This document shows positions 31,655-61,468 of a stretch of DNA of 64,000 nucleotides, one piece after another. Below the pieces are notes generated by a model, which was not told where the DNA came from, ran no database searches, and saw only the letters and a program-made list of their open reading frames with translations. A program made the position numbers and the translations under genes. Within the stretch, counting starts at the first letter, position 1. Each line of letters opens with the position of its first letter. This DNA is from Eledone cirrhosa. Its lineage: Eukaryota. The stretch covers positions 34,100,001 to 34,164,000 of the forward strand of contig OZ024759.1 in the NCBI GenBank assembly GCA_964016885.1. The letters are read 5' to 3'.

Positions 31655-31885
31655 CGAAACATAAGTCAATCGCATGAACTCATAATCTTTTATTTACTGC
31701 TATAAATATTTCGATGATAGCCGTTGAATGGCTATGACCTCATCAGGCAGTTAGTCAGTTCTTAGATATGCCATCTGTGTGTGTATAGTGTTGATGGTAT
31801 TAGAGCCAATGTTAGAAATATATACACTACGTGATGCTATATATATATATATATAGCATCACGTAGTGTATATATTTCTAACATT
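31651..31885 (-). mobile_element. TA-inserted hammerhead-bearing element ending in a perfect 78-bp TA-centred hairpin
   Basis: AATGTTAGAAATATATACACTACGTGATGC-(TA)n-GCATCACGTAGTGTATATATTTCTAACATT at 31808-31885. Confidence 0.75.
31696..31751 (-). ncRNA. Minimal type I hammerhead ribozyme motif
   Basis: The minus strand reads ACTGC CTGATGA GGTCATAGCC ATTCAAC GGCTATCATC GAAA T ATTT A TA GCAGT: 5-bp stem I, intact core, long stem II, minimal stem III, AUA triplet. Confidence 0.8.
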
Positions 31886-33868: not shown

Positions 33869-33970
<102 letters not shown>

Positions 33971-33975
33971 GAGAG

Positions 33976-34350
33976 AGAATTCACAAGAATCAAAGCTATG
34001 TTCAAAGCATTTATTCTCTTACAATTGTTTCCTCCAAACCTAGGCTTGGTGTCTTCGGAGCATTTTTCAATGTTTTTACACATAATTGACTTCCTATCCA
34101 ACGCAGGAGAAATACAGATACATATATATATAATATATATATATTGATGTACAATGGAGTGGCATATGCCACTCCACTGTACATCATTATATATATATAT
34201 ATATTTATCTGTATGTCTCTTGCGTTGGGAAGGAGGTAAATTATGTGTACAAACATTGAAAAATGCTCCGAAGATTCCAAGCCTAGGTTTGGATGAAACA
34301 ATTGTAAGTGAATAAATGCTTTGAACATAGCTTTGATTCTTGTGAATTCT
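33976..34350. mobile_element. 375-bp palindrome with a hammerhead-like motif in each arm
   Basis: Centre GGCATATGCC (34161-34170); the arms are clearly complementary with scattered mismatches and include internal TA tracts. Confidence 0.9.
34264..34310 (+). ncRNA. Variant minimal type I hammerhead (CCGAAGA core); mirror copy at 34016-34062 (-)
   Basis: TGCT CCGAAGA TTCCAAGCCTAGGTTTGGAT GAAA C AATT G TA AGTG; palindromic stem III ACAATTGT and GUA triplet; U4 is C in both arms. Confidence 0.6.
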
Positions 34351-34881
34351 ATATAACTGCTCTGTAGAACAACTGATGTTATTACATTGAGCTATTTATC
34401 TTACTGGTAAAAAGGTAGTAATAAATTACTGACCTACACTGTTTAGGGTTTAAAATATACATAACTATAACAAGTATTAATACATACATAACTATAAATA
34501 GTATCCCTAATATTATATATATATTTATAAACTCAAGAAAATTAACAGAGGATAAGAGAACGAACGGAAAGAAAACAAAACGATAAACATTTCTTTTAAG
34601 GGGAAATCTTAAAAATTAAATAAAAAAAATAAAAAAATACAAACGAAGGTATATACATGTATTTAAGGTGAAGTGTGTGTATATGTGTATGTGTGTACAG
34701 ACAGGTAAATCCTCGAGGAATCGTAAGAGTGTCGTAGTGACTGACGAAGATTCTGGGGTATTTTAAAGGTGGATTCCAACCTGTCTCCAGATTTGAACGA
34801 AGCTGATATCTTCCAGAGAAGGAAAAAGTGAGAGAGATAGGAAGAGAATAGTTTAAGGGAAAAGTCGATACCAGTACGAGG

Positions 34882-35072
34882 TACCAGTAATACACTGGAA
34901 TAATTGCTGGTCTTGTGCCAAAAGTAGAAACAGTATTATATGTGTATAGTCACCAGTAATACGCTGGGATAATTGCTGGTCTTGTGCCAAAAGTAGAAAC
35001 AGTATTATATGTGTATAGTCACCAGTAATACACTGGGATAATTGCTGGTCTTGTGCCACAAGTAGAAACACA
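34882..35072 (+). repeat. Three tandem 69-bp copies of the Meta-SINE 3' tail
   Basis: ACCAGTAATAC starts at 34883, 34952 and 35021. Confidence 0.9.
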
Positions 35073-35097
35073 TATTTCTATCTACCACCGCTTCAAA

Positions 35098-35625
35098 TAA
35101 TTGTTTCTACATATTGTGCAAAGCCAGCAATTTGAATGGAAGGGGATAGCCGACTAAATCAACCCTAATACATTACTGGTACTTTATTTTTTCAACCGTT
35201 TAAGGATGAAAAGGAAAGCTAACTTCGGCGGGATTTGGACTCAGAAGGTAAAGCGTTAATCCAGCACCCTATCTACCCAGGAAAATAATTTTCTACTTTA
35301 GGTACACGGCCAGTAATTTGTAGGGAAGCGGGAAAGGTGATTATATCGATGCCCAGTGCATTACTGATACTTTATTTTATCGACCCCGAAAATAATTGTT
35401 TCTTATATAGGCACAAGGCCATCAATTTTTGGGGAGGGGAAAGTCTATTAAATCGACCCCAGTGCGTGGCTGGTACTTTATTTTATCGATCCCGTAAGGA
35501 TGAAAAGCAAAATTAACCTCGGCGGGATTTGAACTCAGATCATAAAGGGCCGTAACTCTATGCTGCAAAGCATGGCGTCCGGCTCTATACCGATACTGCC
35601 AATCCACCTCCCTATCGACCCCGAA
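35098..35625 (-). mobile_element. Cluster of three Meta-domain SINEs (long form)
   Basis: Copies at about 35098-35275, 35285-35390 and 35394-35608; the last is full length with A box TGGCAGTATCGG and B box GAGTTCAAATCCC on the minus strand. Confidence 0.88.
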
Positions 35626-38908: not shown

Positions 38909-39580
38909 GATAATAATATAAGCATTCTCGAACCACTGATGTTTAATGCTCTATTGTAAAAGATACCATATTAACAATGTTTTGTTATTGCTGTGTAGGT
39001 TTGCTGTAGATTTTCTTACAGGGAACATTAAACATTGGAGACCTTTGACAATAGTTTTTTAAGACTGTCAGATTAATCTCCCGAATTAAGTTGTAGAGAT
39101 AGCAAAGAATTAATGTATATTAACATTAGGTTTGTGGATAGCTTTAGGCCTTCAGAGGTAGCTAGATGCAGAGGGGCACATAAACAAGCAGAGATGAAAG
39201 CCGGCTTAACATATATAAACTTACAACAAACCTCACGTGACTGGATATATATATACGATAAAATATGTAATGTATATATATATAAGAAAAGTATATAATA
39301 TATATATATAATATATTATACATATATATATATATATATAAATATATAATATATATAAAATACAAAATATATAATATATAAATATATATGTAAATATATA
39401 ATATATATATAATAAATATATATATAATATATATATTCAGATATGTGGATATGTATACAAAATTATTTCTACGTGTGCATAATAGAGTTTTTGTTATAGT
39501 GAATGTGTATGAATATATACATATATATATATATATCATAAAACATGTCTATAGAATCTCCAGATAAAATATATACCAAC

Positions 39581-40056
<476 letters not shown>

Positions 40057-44672: not shown

Positions 44673-45018
44673 AACGGAAAAAATGAAACGAATTTTCAGT
44701 TCCCACTGTCAGTACGGCTGTTACTTAAATATAAGTATGTACACGTACATACATATATGTATACAGACGTACAGTAGTATGTATATATATACATACATGC
44801 AAACATATATATATATATGTACGTATGGATTCATCGAACATTTATTATGATGCTCGGTGTGTTTGTAAACAAACATCCCGTATTAAGCCGTAGTGTCTAG
44901 CAACCATCGTTGCTCGTTTGTTCAACACTGACAAAGGAACGCTGTACTAGTTTCAAGCTTATTAGCTATCGTCAGCAACGTATACCTTCCTGCCAGATAG
45001 CTGAACGTATATACTTAC

Positions 45019-46146: not shown

Positions 46147-46571
46147 GAATTGGGAGGATACAGGAGGTTTGGAAGTATCGGTATGCTTTGCAGCACAGAG
46201 TTACGGCACTTTGCGGTCTGAGTTAAAAAACCGCCGAGGTAATTTTGCCTTTCATCGTCACGATGTCGATGAAATAATGTACCAGTCGCGCACTGGGGTT
46301 CGATTTCATTGACTTTCCTCTCCTCCAAAATTGCTGGCCCTGTGCCTATATAAGAAACCATTATTATAATATTCACTAGGGTAGTGGATTGGCAGTATCG
46401 GTAAAGGGTCGGCCGACATGTTTTGCAGCAAAGAGTTACGGTCCTTTATGATCTGAGTTCAAATCCCGCCGAGGTTCACTTTGTTTTTTCATCCTTACAG
46501 GGTTGATAAAATAAAGTACCAGTACTGCACTGGGTAATTGCTGGCCTTGTGCCTAAACATAGAAACAATTA
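46147..46571 (+). mobile_element. Two tandem Meta-domain SINEs (long form 46147-46365, short form 46383-46571)
   Basis: GTGGATTGGCAGTATCGG..GAGTTCAAATCCCGCCGAGG..TTTCATCCTTACAGGGTTGATAAAATAAAGTACCAG..GGCCTTGTGCC. Confidence 0.9.
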
Positions 46572-46760
46572 TACGTTACACTACACTTTTAGATTTGAAA
46601 ACACTTCAGCTGACACCAGAATCTCGAGGCTCCTTTCATGATAATGGAATACAGAATCTCATTTAATAAACTATGATACAAGCACATCAGAGCCGTTTGC
46701 TGTATATTAAACACCTGTATTTATATATCTGTAACATAATATGAAAAAAAATACTCCTGC

Positions 46761-54280: not shown

Positions 54281-54651
54281 TTGACTGACTTATCATTTGA
54301 TCAGTCAGATGTTTTTAGATATCACCCAGTTAATTATGATTTCTGCAGAATTGTTATCCTTCATCAACTTGAAATGATATGAAAGATGAAATCGATCTCA
54401 GAGAAGTAAGATTCTGAATGTACACCACAACATCCCCAATCATTCTAGCTATTTAATGTCTTGGAGGAACGCAACCAAATTAAATTATAATCGAAGGTTG
54501 TATATATTGATAATAAATCTCTCGCATGTCATTAAAAGTAGGTTTACAAATTATATTAAAGCAAGGCTTCATTAGTTTTCCATTTTCTCCAGCATCTGCT
54601 CAGAATGTTTTTTAATTAAACAAGGAAAATAAGGATTTCTTCATTCTAAAT

Positions 54652-54876
54652 ACTGGTTTCTTATATTGGCACAAGGCCAGCAATTTTGGGAGAGGGGAAA
54701 GTTGATTATATCGACCTCAGTGCGTGACTGGTACTTTATTTTATCGACACCGTGAGGATGAAAGGTAAAATTAACCTCAGCAGGATTTGAACTCAGACCT
54801 TAAAGGGGCGTAACTCTATTCTACAAAACTACAAAACATGGCGTGCGCCCCTCCACGGTTACTGCTAATCCACCGC
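54652..54876 (-). mobile_element. Meta-domain SINE (long form), full length
   Basis: Family motifs including the GGGAGAGGGGAAAGTTGATTATATCGAC segment. Confidence 0.88.
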
Positions 54877-55221
54877 GCTAGTAACAATAATATATATTAA
54901 CGATTTATTTATTAATCCAATATAATGAAAACTTATTTAAGTCAAACAAACTTCTGTCATCAGAAATTCTCCAAAAGCAATAAACTACATCTACATGAAT
55001 GACATAATTACAATGGCTTTATTTTCTCTTATTTTGCTTTATACGTCATTGTTTTCTTTTGTTTTTGATTTTGTTTTGTATTGTTTTGTTTGTTTTTAGT
55101 TTCGGCTTTATTGAAAGACTATTGTCTAATCAATATCTATTTCCAGGTCGAATATTATGTTATCGAACAGACTGGCAAATATTCAAACCGATGTTTACAT
55201 ATGTTGATTTGTTCGTTACAT

Positions 55222-55239
55222 TTGCTGTTGTTGTTATTA

Positions 55240-55273
<34 letters not shown>

Positions 55274-55468
55274 GCTATTGTTATTGTTGTTGCTGTTGTT
55301 GTTGTTGTTGTTGTTGTTGTGTTATGGTTGTTAATGATATTATTATTATTTGGCTGTTATTATAATCGTTGCTGTTGGTGGCGTTGTTGTTGCTGTTGCT
55401 GTTGATGTTGATGATGTTGTTGTTGTTGTTGCTGTTGTTATTGTTGTCGTTGCTGCTGTTGTTGTTTT
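55222..55468. repeat. (TTA)n/(GTT)n trinucleotide tract
   Basis: Visible directly. Confidence 0.92.
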
Positions 55469-55916
55469 ATTAAAACGTTTGCATCATACACTTATCTCAT
55501 TATACTTTCAAAAATGTCAAACTGAGTCAGAATAATTGAGTGGTTTCTAGCAGTAAGTAGTGTAGTCACGTGATGCTACTTATTCTGCTCTGTACATGTA
55601 ATTGATATTGTTCCAGTTGAGCGTTGCCACCGCCCGCGGACTTGCGGCTGCTATTTTTGGAATCATGATCGAAAGGTCATGTTACATTATCAAATTAAGA
55701 TATCTCACAATATGAAGCATTCGGTCCTTGAAATAGACACTACATTATAAGTTGTTCTTGTCGACTGAGCTGCTAGAAACATGTACTAGAAGTATCGAGA
55801 ACTTTTGTACTCTCAGTCCTTTAATGGAGATAAGGTTGTTGATATGAAATCGTCTGTTGAAACAAATATTGTTATACATAGATACGGTCATATTGTTATA
55901 ATATTGCAAGACATAA

Positions 55917-56097
55917 TAATTGTTTCTACTTGTTGGCATAAGGCCAGCAATTATCCCAGTGCATTACTGGTACTTTATTTTATCGGCCCCGTAAGGATGA
56001 AAGGCAAAGTTAACCTCGGCAGGATTTTAACTCAGATGGTAAATTGCCATTACTCTATACTGTAAAGCATATCCGACCCTCTACTAATACTGCCAAC

Positions 56098-56098
<1 letters not shown>
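55917..56098 (-). mobile_element. Meta-domain SINE (short form)
   Basis: Family motifs. Confidence 0.88.
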
Positions 56099-56134
<36 letters not shown>

Positions 56135-56136
<2 letters not shown>

Positions 56137-56243
56137 GGAAAAAGTATGTATACTTTTTCCTATTTTCCACTCTACTACCCTAAGTATTGAGTACTCTGGT
56201 ACGTTATGGTCCATTTGGTTCCTTACCACAATTCCTTTGTTAT
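56135..56243 (+). mobile_element. Family B element with only a 28-bp terminal hairpin
   Basis: TAGGAAAAAGTAT-GT-ATACTTTTTCCTA followed by the same tail as the copies at 19483 and 27497. Confidence 0.85.
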
Positions 56244-56554
56244 ATATATTTATATATATATTTATATTCATACGTACATATATATGTTTTATATTAGTAC
56301 TGATTATGATATTGCTAAATGGATTTGTTATTCGTGTTAATAGCACATGCTCTATTTAGTGCCTCTTACACGTGTTTCGCGGTGTCAAGATAAAAGTCCG
56401 CTGTGTTATGTCATTAGGTTTTAATACCTATCCCGGATTTTTTAAAAAATCTTGGTTTGTTTTTTACATCCGTGACCTGGATATCAATATCTTAAGAATG
56501 CAAGTTTTATAAGGTTCAAAATAGGGACTAAGTCCCTGTAATAAATTCATCAAC

Positions 56555-56615
<61 letters not shown>

Positions 56616-57469
56616 GTGGGAGACTGGAAGGTAATATCCGTAGTGGTAGGGCACTCAGTCCAAGGGACGAGTTAGATAGAAGTGGTTACACAACAGTTAG
56701 TTCACCATACATATATATATATATATATATATATAAGAGTGTGTGTGTGTTTCGGTGTCACGGAATTGCACAAGCTCATGCTGTATGAGTCAAAACTCAA
56801 CTAATCTGCCCAACAGTGGAACCGAACTCAAAGAGAGACCGACCACATATATATTCCCACCTGCTCGAAACCATGTTTGAGTTGCATATTTGAAATATCG
56901 CTTTATACCATGAGATGAATACGTATTAAACGAAACAAAAGCAAAAACAACAACAAACACTGCATATCAAATGAAAATAATAATTTCAAGTGTCTATAAC
57001 GTTTTTTTATTTTTATTTTTTCATGTTCGTCTTCTTTTCCCCTCCAATTTATTTGCTTGCCATTCGGGCAGTGTTACACTCTAGTAACTAAACAATAGAA
57101 ATGCTGTTGATAATATTAAGGAATATCTATTCCTATCCATAATCCATAATTTCACAGCAAATGAACAAAATAATCTTCGGCACATCATGGCAGAAATTCC
57201 ATCAAAATCATCGAAACGAGACGCCTGTGTGAAATGACTAAAGAAAGGCAGCCGAGACAATATGACATATTCTGGCTTAGAAAGATAAACCTTCTTCTGC
57301 TGACATATTATCAATAGTACTGCATTACTAAGGTCCACATATATTGATTACAATTTTATATGTCAAGACGTGTGGCTTAGTGGTTAGGTTGTTTGGTTAG
57401 ACACACGAACATAGCGTCAGGTGTTCGTTTCCTGCATGTATCCATTCCGACAACTTTTAAACATTTAGA

Positions 57470-58085
57470 TAGGAAGTGATTTGAACTCAGAAAGTAAAGG
57501 GTTATAATCCCTTATTACAAGTAATAATAATTTCTACATTAGGCACAAGGCTAGTAATTCTGTAGATAGACGAATATTGGTTAAATGGAGGCCAGAACGT
57601 GGCTGGAACTTTATTTTATCGACCCCATAAGAATGAAAGGCAAAGGTAACCTCGGTGGGATTTGAACTCAGAACGTAAAGGTCATTAATTCAATAATAAA
57701 GCATGTAGTCCGACGCTCTACTGCTTACCGGCCTTACTAATGATAATAATAAGTGTTTCTACTTCTGGCACAAGGCCAGCAATTATCCCAGTGTATTACT
57801 GGTACTTTATTTTATCGACCCCGTAAGGATGAAAGACAAAGGTAACCTCGGTTGGATTTGAACTCAGAATGGCAAGGGCAGTAACTCTATGCGTCAAAGC
57901 ATGGCGTCCGACCCTCTAGCGATACTGCCAATCCATAATGATAATAATTGTTTCTACTTTAGGCATAAGGCCAGCAATTACCCAGTGCATTACTGGTACT
58001 TTATTTTATCGACCCCGTAAAGATGAAAGGCAAAGTCAACCTCGGCGCGATTTGAACTCAGATCGTAAGGGGACGTAACTATGCT
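57470..58085 (-). mobile_element. Tandem cluster of Meta-domain SINEs separated by (TAA)-rich spacers
   Basis: Copies at about 57527-57722, 57750-57935 and 57945-58085, plus a head fragment near 57478. Confidence 0.9.
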
Positions 58086-58474
58086 GATAATAATAATACT
58101 TGTTTGTAATTTTGGTACAAGACAATAAATTGATGTGTGGGGTGGAGTAAATTATACCCCTGGCTATTTCATGTTGCTATACCTCTTCCTTGGAGGCCGG
58201 CTTTTGGAAGTATATTAGAAGAAAATGAATCGCGGTATTTCGTTTGTGTCAGAGTTCAAAACAAGAAATCACTTAGAAATTGGTAGAATTTGAACTCTGA
58301 ACAAAATGAAATTATTCTGTTTCACAAGTTTTCCATTACACCACCCCTAAAGAAATAATAACAATAACGATAATGTTAATGATTGTCGTTATTATCATAT
58401 TTTTAGCGATATATTTCGCGCTAAAAATAGTTTTATTTATAAATTATAGGTTTCTTTGAAGTTTACACAGCACG

Positions 58475-58522
<48 letters not shown>

Positions 58523-58652
58523 ATGTGTGTGTGTGTATCTAACAGTTTTTACTGTATTCCCTCCCAATCACCTACGCACATTTTAAAAGCCAACTTTTAC
58601 TAATGTATATATATATATATATAATATGTATGTACATAATATATTTATATAT

Positions 58653-58735
<83 letters not shown>

Positions 58736-59173
58736 CAAATACACCGTATATATATATATATTTCATAACCCAATTTCTGAAACAGTATTTTTTAAGCGAG
58801 GAAACCAGACAGGAAGAATTGAATTTTTAAATTTGTTCTTTTATCGAAGATGGGCAAAATAATTTGATTAAAAAATATTAAATCAAAAAAATATAATTTG
58901 ATTTAAAAAAAAATAGTATACCACATTATAAAAAGCATCTCTCTCTGTATGTGTATTTATGTATATTTATATATAATATACAATATATATATATATATGT
59001 ATAATATACAATATATATATATATAATATAATATATATATATATATATATATTTATTAAATACACATATATATATATATATATATGTGTGTGTGTATATA
59101 TATAATATATATATATATAAATATATATATGTATATATAAAGTGTGTGTATGTATATATGTAACATATACAAT

Positions 59174-59207
<34 letters not shown>

Positions 59208-59917
59208 GTGTGTATATGTATAAACTGAGTGTGTATGCGTGTGTATTATTTATATAAAACAATAAATATTTTTTGCATTCTAAATATATTGACTAAATGT
59301 ATTTCAGAAGTGCGGATAACAAAAACCAGTTGATTAAATGCATCTCTCTCTCTCTCTCTCTCTCTCGCTCTCGCTCTCTCTCTCTCTCTCTCTCTTATAC
59401 CGTTAAACCATTGAAATGATTTAGATTTGCTCTTAGCATTGCACGTCTGCCAATATTTGTTATTCCGGTGGATGTCTGACCCATCATGAAACGTGCTTAA
59501 ATATATATGTGTGTGTATGCATGCATGTATGTATGTATATATATATATATTTATATATATATATATAAAGAAAGGTAAACAGAAATGGCAAAATGAACCA
59601 ATCAAAGCGCATAGTACACGGAAGAAACATATTAGTTTAACGTTTCGGGCACTAGTCTCTCATCAGAAGATAGATTTAGAAATAGATGATAAATAGAAAG
59701 TAAAGAGTGATGGGAAGGAACGGCGAAAATAAGAAAAACAAATGGGAAGAAATAAAAACACACCTGCGTTCAATACCGAAGTAGAGTTTTAGTATTCATT
59801 TATATTAAGGCTAAAACGTGAGTCTTGTTATTGTGGAGCTTAGCCTATTTATCTCATAATTACTCCTGTGACGAAACAAGGAAAGGGTAAATAGAACGAG
59901 AAGAACAAGGTGGTCTA

Positions 59918-60040
59918 CTGAGTGGACTAGAGCAGCGTAAAATAAAGTATCTTGCTCAAGAAAACAACGCAACACTGTGACTCGAACTCACAAGCTTACA
60001 GTTGTGAGACTAATACCCTAACCACAAGGCGAAGCGGCTG
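59918..60040 (-). mobile_element. CORE-type SINE head
   Basis: GAGTGGACTAGAGCAGCGTAAAATAAAGTATCTTGCTCAAG..CTCGAACTCAC..CCCTAACCAC. Confidence 0.78.
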
Positions 60041-60148
60041 CACACATACACAAATACATACATACACGCACACACACACACGCACACGCACACATACATG
60101 ATGGCTACCTCCTCGTTATCGAGTATGGCCATTGCACGAAATAATATT

Positions 60149-60461
60149 AATTGTTTCTACTTTAGGCACAATGCCACCAATTACCCAGTGTATTACTGGT
60201 ACTTTATTTCATCGACCCCTGTAAGGATGAAAGGCAAAGTCAACCTCGGCAGGATTTGAACTCAGATCGTAAAGGGACGTAACTATGCTGGAAAGCATGG
60301 TGTCTGACGCTCTACCGATACTGCCAATCCACCGCCCTATTGCACGATATGATATTAATAATTGTTTCTACTTTAGGCACAAGGCCAGCAATTACCCAGT
60401 ACATTACTGGTACTTTATTTTATCGACCCCATAAGGATGAAAGGCTAAGTTAACCTCGGCG
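60149..60461 (-). mobile_element. Two tandem Meta-domain SINEs (short form)
   Basis: Full copy 60149-60335 and truncated copy 60360-60461, each preceded by TTGCACGA.AT.ATATTAAT. Confidence 0.9.
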
Positions 60462-60527: not shown

Positions 60528-60775
60528 TAAAGTGAGGAAAGACTGTGCACTGAGCCAATACCACTCTCTGATTGACAGTAGCTATAACCCGAAAACAAGA
60601 AAATATCAACATCATCGGTAACTACTGAGCCACAGGTTTTATGTCCGATCTATCCCAGGTTCCTGAGTTGCCTTCTCTTAGAAGAATGCCCTGACAAAGG
60701 CTAGGGGCCCTTCACTCCCTGTGATTAAACGGCGCGATCGGGTATCCAGCCAGACTATTTCTATGTCCCCGCGCA
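60528..60775 (-). mobile_element. RTE-like UTR fragment homologous to 6849-7030
   Basis: The minus strand reads ATCACAGGGAG..CCCCTAGCCTTTGTCAGGGCA..CTAAGAGAAGGCAACTC..GATGATGTTGA..AGAGAGTGGTATTGGCT. Confidence 0.65.
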
Positions 60776-60964
60776 TATACATGCATATACATATACATAT
60801 ATGTATATACATATATGCATATACATGTATGCATATACATATACATATATATATACATATTTACACATATATGCATATACATATATGCATATACATATAT
60901 ATATACATATTTACACATTCTTCCTCCCTGCAGGACAAAAACACACATACATATTTACATACAA

Positions 60965-61468
60965 AGAATGTCATCTCGCTACTACCTCCCCATGAGATAC
61001 GATGGGATAGCTAGAACCATCTGGAACGCACTTCGGAAAACAAAATTAACAACAAACGAGGAAGAATGTATTGAGACAGAGGACTCTAAGGAATATTGGT
61101 GGAACCTGAAAATAAAAACTGCCACTAAAGTAAAGCACAACCGGCCGGATATTGTAGTTTGGGACTACACATTGAAAACGTGTTCTGTTGTGGAGATCAG
61201 CTGCCCACTTGATGTAAACGTTGTCAGAAAAATACAGGAGAAGGAGGACATCTACGGACCATTGATGAGGAGTTTACAAATCCAGTATCCAAGATACACC
61301 TTTAGCTTCATACCCGTCATTATTGGAGCTACGGGTTATATACCAACCCGCTTGGACCAATGTATAACTGAACTTGGATTTGCAGACAAAGAGCGCAGCT
61401 CCCTAATTCATAGTTTCCAAATGACTGCGATAGCTGGCACCTTCAAAATTTGCAAAACATTCTTGTGA
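60965..61468 (+). pseudogene. 5'-truncated R4/Dong-like (R2-group) non-LTR retrotransposon, restriction-like endonuclease domain
   Basis: About 165 open codons with RYD (RHD-like), [30 protein letters not shown] and IPVIIGATG, the PD..D/E..K RLE signature. The N-terminal part of the listed ORF is microsatellite. Confidence 0.88.

Follow-up and report, generated by a model that had tools for sequence, protein, structure and literature searches.

In this study, a palindromic locus was analysed within a window of 64,000 nucleotides of Eledone cirrhosa DNA (the whole stretch from position 34,100,001 to 34,164,000 of contig OZ024759.1). A single palindrome of 375 bases lies at 33976-34350, as had been described in the initial annotation, and its axis falls at 34165/34166 (Table 1). 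The outer arms align without gaps and differ from one another at 12 of 146 positions. The inner arms are mismatched in 1 of 21 pairs and share their centre with the outer arms; the 42-bp hairpin that had been regarded as a separate nested structure is thus the middle of the whole palindrome. The TA tracts that set off the inner arms are unequal in length, with an offset of 5 nt. The limits first proposed hold for the palindrome but not for the element as a whole, which runs on to about 34525-34530 on the right. On the left, apart from a short GA slippage, the arm ends at the family position of the internal TATATA. In addition, 14 nt of stem I and core (34261-34274) recur at 34314-34327 just past the cut site with 11 of 14 identities, a likeness that is possibly a decayed local duplication.

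Table 1. Parts of the locus and fold-backs found in the window (positions of the window; strand as +, - or. for none)
Feature	Positions	Strand	Remarks
Likely left target site: (TA)n tract with a short (GA) slippage at its end	33872-33975	.	
Inverted short copy of the repeat end; halts at the equivalent of the internal TATATA (34350-34355)	33976-34165	-	16 X1 contigs stop at 34355 and pass into (TA)n
Left minimal type I hammerhead-like motif	34016-34062	-	core CCGAAGA 34058-34052; predicted cut between 34020 and 34019
Junction palindrome, 21-nt arms around axis 34165/34166, between TA tracts	34145-34186	.	
Direct copy, palindromic part (pLTR-like)	34166-34350	+	
Right minimal type I hammerhead-like motif	34264-34310	+	predicted cut after 34306
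One-sided extension (tail) of the same repeat family	34351-34530	+	ends in TA tract 34512-34528
Fold-back	500-739		
Fold-back	19479-19607		
Fold-back	27496-27611		
Fold-back	29353-29463		
Fold-back (this locus)	33976-34350		

The two arms carry CCGAAGA cores with C at position 4 (C4), at 34268 on the forward and at 34058 on the reverse strand, which face outward. Both arms read CCGAAGA ... GAAACAATTGTA, and both motifs contain the self-complementary ACAATTGT and GUA. A minimal hammerhead facing outward had initially been assigned to each arm; the cores, ACAATTGT and GUA are indeed present in both, but the left motif fails a strict descriptor, as only 2 contiguous pairs are left in its stem I. 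In the right motif, stem I pairs 34264-67 with 34307-10 through two Watson-Crick and two G-U pairs, the core at 34268-74 places C4 at 34269, stem II occupies 34276-93, GAAA 34295-98, and stem III with its palindromic loop 34298-305. Neither stem II nor the ACAATTGT palindrome is disrupted in this arm. Three private changes lie in the left motif: one disrupts stem I, another disrupts a pair of stem II, and the third gives rise to a C-G pair at the base of that stem. The strict descriptor matched four motifs in the window (640+, 599-, 34268+ and 44975-), and a dinucleotide shuffle contained 0.01 matches on average and 1 at most (100 shuffles, 36,000 complex bases), so the hammerhead-like motifs are beyond chance. 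No hammerhead was reported for the window by Rfam at the gathering score or at E values up to 10, where microRNA-like hairpin noise alone appeared; this blank is uninformative because Rfam also misses the canonical-core motif at 640. The right direct copy by itself folded no better than its shuffles (z 0.08). In the predicted fold of the right motif alone, stem II and part of stem I form.

Of 13 public runs listed, 6 contain part of the stretch. Four of these, X1 and X11 (organism A), X4 (organism B) and X5 (organism C), were aligned over 34110-34710 at 80% likeness; 34110-34220 was skipped as repeat, which places the inner 21 nt and the TA tract outside coverage. Matches on 34221 to about 34530 came from 1398 contigs of X1, 21 of X4 and 11 of X5 and from 3556 reads of X11, and the depth collapses beyond. 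The repeat family therefore extends for about 180 nt beyond the right arm, with a TA tract at its end. Two family ends were observed, at about 34355 and at about 34525-34529: 16 X1 contigs terminate at 34355, the internal TATATA, and pass into (TA)n, and in 298 X11 reads (TA)n follows behind 34529. Sharp ends of X11 reads at 34300/34303, 34345 and 34424/34427 were rejected as element boundaries, since all of them lie on AATT sites of the RAD library and are restriction artefacts; allele shares in X11 are biased likewise by these sites. Scans with patterns of the ribozyme and of the tail retrieved 0 loci in metagenome contigs, viral contigs and prokaryote genomes. Within the window, the only other matching copy is the inverted one, and no further unit in tandem was found.

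The same architecture recurs in the window. After microsatellite masking, 19 local inverted repeats were detected, of which five are self-overlapping, at least 70 nt long and at least 85% identical. Each of the five has one end at most 14 nt from (TA)5 and an extension of 73-166 nt on its other side; the background for such nearness is 2.3% of unmasked positions per end, which is a rough figure because the masking itself ends at TA tracts. The fold-backs at 19479 and 27496 belong to one family (z 50.8) and have different centres. The palindromes at 33976-34350 and 500-739 are unrelated, in agreement with the initial annotation (local alignment z 1.3). By these comparisons, the five fold-backs are from at least four families, and the architecture is a recurrent insertion product. 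A 9-nt word common to the tails of the 34351-34530 element and of 500-739 was considered and is not significant.

Long inverted arms and TA-rich flanks would also suit an insertion into TA of a MITE or a foldback DNA transposon whose termini are long inverted repeats. However, the inverted repeats are not at both family termini, as the family runs about 180 nt beyond the right arm; moreover, the same-family copies at 19479 and 27496 fold at different centres, and a hammerhead motif lies within the arm. Such a transposon is therefore regarded as highly improbable.

Several other structures were observed in the window. The fold-back at 499-739 (tail 441-498) is younger, with 96-97% arm identity, a one-sided tail and (TA)n ends, belongs to an unrelated family and carries canonical CTGATGA minimal hammerheads at 640 (+) and 599 (-). 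The copies at 19479-19686 and 27496-27692 have the short arm against (TA)n and a tail of about 80 nt, and in family coordinates their short arms end only a few nt apart; a further palindrome, of 40 nt, lies in the tail of the 27496 copy (27643-27682). The fold-back at 29353-29545 has a 15-nt spacer and a tail of about 80 nt, and related pieces lie at 26137-26246 and 17588-17643. At 31650-31885, a canonical-core hammerhead motif (31746, -) with G10.1-C11.1 is flanked on one side by (TA)n and on the other by a perfect palindrome of 78 nt, which has a TA tract at its centre. A solo minimal hammerhead motif, CTGACGA (44975, -), occurs at 44940-44985; its stem I has 6 bp, and its stem II has a U/U mismatch at the base. 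Inverted repeats of 48-56 nt surround a long (TA)n tract at 39578-39807, where the right side is extended. The old inverted pairs at 21686-22145 and 23051-23317, about 69% identical, presumably consist of two SINE-like copies in opposite orientation, in which motifs resemble tRNA boxes. The complex sequence of the window is dominated by a dispersed repeat family, of which numerous copies lie in either orientation (34864-35614, 46180-46573, 54650-60460 and others).

The time of folding back was approached through contig 9 of X4, which covers 34221-34397 (177 nt, depth 14.3), comes from another organism and is 98% identical to the right arm. Its 3 differences from the right arm were assigned by depth to 34229, 34238 and 34275, positions at which it agrees with the left arm in every case. 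With this contig as reference, the 9 arm differences in 34221-34350 (130 nt) comprise 3 private to the right arm and 6 private to the left, with 0 derived changes shared, and each arm is about 3.5% from the contig. The probability of 0 shared changes is about 0.01 if the fold-back arose halfway through the life of the copy and 0.22 if it arose at a quarter. Because the arms share no derived change relative to the family contig, the data support formation of the fold-back at or soon after insertion. The alternative is that an old solo copy, together with 21 nt of host flank, was duplicated in inverted form at the DNA level at a later time, or that the fold-back is an artefact of assembly. The inner 21 nt beyond the TA tract have no other copy in the window and could be host DNA, which would be expected under such a duplication. 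On the other hand, the count of shared changes argues against it, as does the end of the short arm at the point where 16 other contigs end, and a read artefact is excluded by the 12 of 146 positions that differ between the arms. This alternative is thus judged improbable, and formation close to the insertion event is retained.

These features resemble those of Penelope-like elements (PLEs). Published insertions of endonuclease-positive (EN+) PLEs (Penelope/Poseidon, Neptune and Hydra; PMC8557442, PMC3846280, PMC11167929) likewise show a head-to-head inverted copy, a junction palindrome, a one-sided extension, (TA)n surroundings, a TA tract upstream of the ribozyme and a multi-copy family. PLEs are described with an inverted 5'-truncated copy, a tail of 30-40 bp at one end and a microsatellite bias (PMC8557442), and with palindromes of 18 and 38 bp at pLTR 5' ends and TATATATA in the pLTR, for which self-priming was proposed as the cause (PMC3846280). 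At the present locus, an inverted 5'-truncated copy adjoins the direct copy with a junction palindrome between them, the family is dispersed in many copies in AT-rich or (TA)n targets (1398 X1 contigs, with ends into (TA)n), and a type I hammerhead motif with a variant core lies in the pLTR-like part. The copy differs from the EN+ elements in that it is without an ORF and in that its extension, in a family with two ends, measures about 180 nt as against the published 30-40 bp. Furthermore, a motif search of published supplements, including the consensus file of PMC8557442, gave no family match. Further background came from PMC6765202, PMC7229834, the retrozyme preprint (bioRxiv 10.64898/2026.07.22.740005) and PMC13282606.

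The motifs also agree in most respects with the minimal hammerheads of metazoan PLEs, for which dual motifs 100-700 bp apart on opposite strands, a short helix I, a long helix II, a palindromic helix III and low activity have been described (PMC4209133). The locus has opposite-strand motifs about 200 nt apart, GAAA, a short stem I, an 8-bp stem II, a palindromic stem III with loop 3, and GUA at the NUH site. Two features of that consensus are absent, and the motif is therefore filed as a variant: in place of CUGANGA, both arms and contig 9 read CCGAAGA, with C for U at core position 4, and the G10.1-C11.1 pair closing stem II is found neither in the right arm (U/U), nor in the left arm (C-G), nor in contig 9 (C/U). 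The core variant given in the available text of PMC4209133 is U3-A8, not C4. In this analysis the locus is, in structural terms, a known architecture with a small core variant.

Animal non-LTR retrozymes (PMC7229834; bioRxiv 10.64898/2026.07.22.740005) are alike in being non-coding, in carrying a type I hammerhead and in their proposed derivation from PLEs. However, these are head-to-tail tandem units, each with a hammerhead, whereas the locus is head-to-head, and at least two such units in tandem are not found within the window.

Among 115 ORFs of the window, no match to a reverse transcriptase or a GIY-YIG domain was found with Pfam, nothing scored above the curated cut-off, and truncated copies are expected to lack such an ORF; tRNA genes were not found in the window either. 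Because no reverse transcriptase or endonuclease gene was found in the window, PLE parentage is something that we infer. Two other frames were noted. The open frame at 60725-61468 (+) has no Pfam match, and its second half has an RPD...E...K pattern, which we take to resemble the restriction-like endonuclease of non-LTR retroelements. A short frame at 7031-7201 (+) has a weak C2H2 zinc-finger match (E 6e-05, below the cut-off).

Taken together, with good though not full confidence, the locus is read as the 3' end of a multi-copy repeat that occurs here twice between (TA)n tracts, in forward orientation together with its tail and in inverted orientation with the tail missing. This repeat would likely be a 5'-truncated Penelope-like retroelement or a non-autonomous derivative of one, whose insertion would have folded back at the centre and whose C4 hammerhead, shared across the subfamily, is likely weak or inactive.

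The outward orientation of the two motifs bears on how they could act. A two-polarity unit of viroid-like or retrozyme-like kind would be transcribed both ways from the central TA tracts, or would be an integrated circular RNA with a ribozyme on each strand. The motifs do lie on both strands and point outward from TA tracts, and a bidirectional TATATATA promoter has been suggested for rotifer pLTRs (PMC3846280). However, the two motifs are copies of one sequence and not ribozymes on the complementary strands of a rod, the family extends on one side only and has no tandem unit in the window, viral and metagenome contigs gave no match, and both arms have drifted privately. Since the motifs face outward, a read-through RNA from either side makes the antisense copy first, and such a transcript is predicted to bury both motifs in one hairpin; imposing the hammerhead fold on the 375-nt RNA carries a predicted penalty of 75.5 kcal/mol relative to the long hairpin. 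By this prediction, the locus could at most give double-stranded RNA. A two-polarity unit is accordingly very improbable. The further claim of the initial annotation, that a special dual-polarity design had arisen independently twice, is not upheld, given that the structure matches a published form of PLE insertion, that there are five in the window and that both motifs are predicted to be buried.

With the truncated Penelope-type insertion as the preferred reading, the state of the core in the family was considered. In contig 9 the letter at 34269 is C, since its 3 differences all fall at other positions. A C-to-T change at 34269 is absent among the 40 variants listed of 107, where variants with shares near 30% are listed; beyond these 40, C-to-T changes occur at one place in X1, one in X5 and four in X11. 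Thus C at 34269 is very probably the majority state in the four runs aligned, and C4 appears to be the norm in the closest relatives and not a lesion of this copy. Of the two origins of U4C that had been put forward, a family core variant therefore fits better than an inactivating mutation of this copy, and the change predates the fold-back. The proposed comparison of homologues for CCGAAGA or CTGAAGA gave CCGAAGA in contig 9, with the variants listed as the remaining evidence.

A diverged subfamily (80-88% alike) may keep U4. Its stem I is Watson-Crick (changes at 34309 and 34310), a G-U pair of stem II becomes A-U at 34281 with the pair kept, and loop 2 varies at 34285; the stem I state and the 34281 change suggest that in some members of the family the fold has been under selection. 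The close subfamily has a pyrimidine-U mismatch in place of the published G10.1-C11.1 and a stem I of 4 bp with two G-U pairs. Furthermore, a C-to-G change at 34266, which breaks stem I, makes up 6% of the depth in X1 and 141 of 439 reads in X11, and occurs in 2 contigs of X5. This change is uncompensated, as the sole G-to-C place in X1 is 34558 and X5 has none. C4, the missing G10.1-C11.1 pair and the tolerated break of stem I in the close subfamily are read here as signs of relaxed selection. The master element would already have had C4, and a weak or dead ribozyme is the more probable outcome. Catalytic decay may have affected the variant subfamily as a whole.

The C4 hammerhead of a PLE-type fold-back could nevertheless be a working natural variant that cleaves as a stem III dimer or with the help of protein. 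The majority state of C4 in the runs aligned, among the variants listed, and the intact stem II and ACAATTGT palindrome of the right arm are in line with activity. For a viroid hammerhead with the same core change, U4C, lower activity in vitro with retained infectivity has been reported, as cited in Perreault et al. 2011 (PMC3088659), where cleavage is also described with U-U mismatched at 10.1-11.1; an anole PLE hammerhead cleaves only with protein (PMC11167929). However, the viroid ribozyme has full stems and tertiary contacts, whereas the motif described here is minimal, and three departures are stacked in the close subfamily (C4, the pyrimidine-U mismatch and the 4-bp stem I with two G-U pairs). 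The uncompensated break of stem I at 34266 speaks against activity as well, and predicted homodimers of the right motif pair through stem II and not through stem III. A working C4 ribozyme is therefore considered unlikely. In the literature searched, no C4 core was found in a PLE hammerhead, the study of PLE hammerhead variants by Lunse et al. lying outside the comparison; the core spelling CCGANGA was unmatched, CCGAUGA appeared only in an unrelated context, and U4C was mentioned alongside PLEs only in Perreault 2011.

The following course of events would account for the locus under the preferred reading of a truncated Penelope-type insertion. From the PLE literature, the endonuclease of the element would nick (TA)n, and the reverse transcriptase would copy the RNA from an internal start near the pLTR. 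Two start sites of reverse transcription define the PLE tail, and hammerhead mutants still insert in vitro (PMC11167929). Synthesis would stop upstream of the ribozyme and then prime itself or join a second copy head to head, which would give the junction palindrome; the template strand for head-to-head products is described as unsettled (PMC3846280). The inverted copy would be resolved at the internal TATATA against the other end of the target, with folding back at or soon after insertion, as the arm comparison supports. C4 would already have been in the master element, where cleavage was probably needless for spread and the core would have drifted. Read-through RNA from the outward motifs would then form one long hairpin with the antisense copy first, and a working two-polarity ribozyme is not predicted.

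In conclusion, hammerhead-bearing palindromes beside (TA)n in such genomes would be routine Penelope-type insertion scars. The role of PLE hammerheads is still open (PMC8557442, PMC11167929), and the spread of a subfamily with a damaged core would support the view of cleavage as dispensable. It is rather improbable that a high-copy animal PLE subfamily, present in more than one species, has a C4 minimal hammerhead without G10.1-C11.1 that still cleaves, as a dimer or with the aid of protein, beside a sister subfamily with the canonical fold. If this were true, it would have no precedent, in the literature searched, as a natural U4C ribozyme family of animal retroelements, and the two subfamilies would offer a natural pair for testing whether PLE hammerheads matter in transposition. 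Moreover, if the C4 family does cleave, the consensus of the hammerhead core would widen, and searches based on CUGANGA would undercount the ribozymes of animals.
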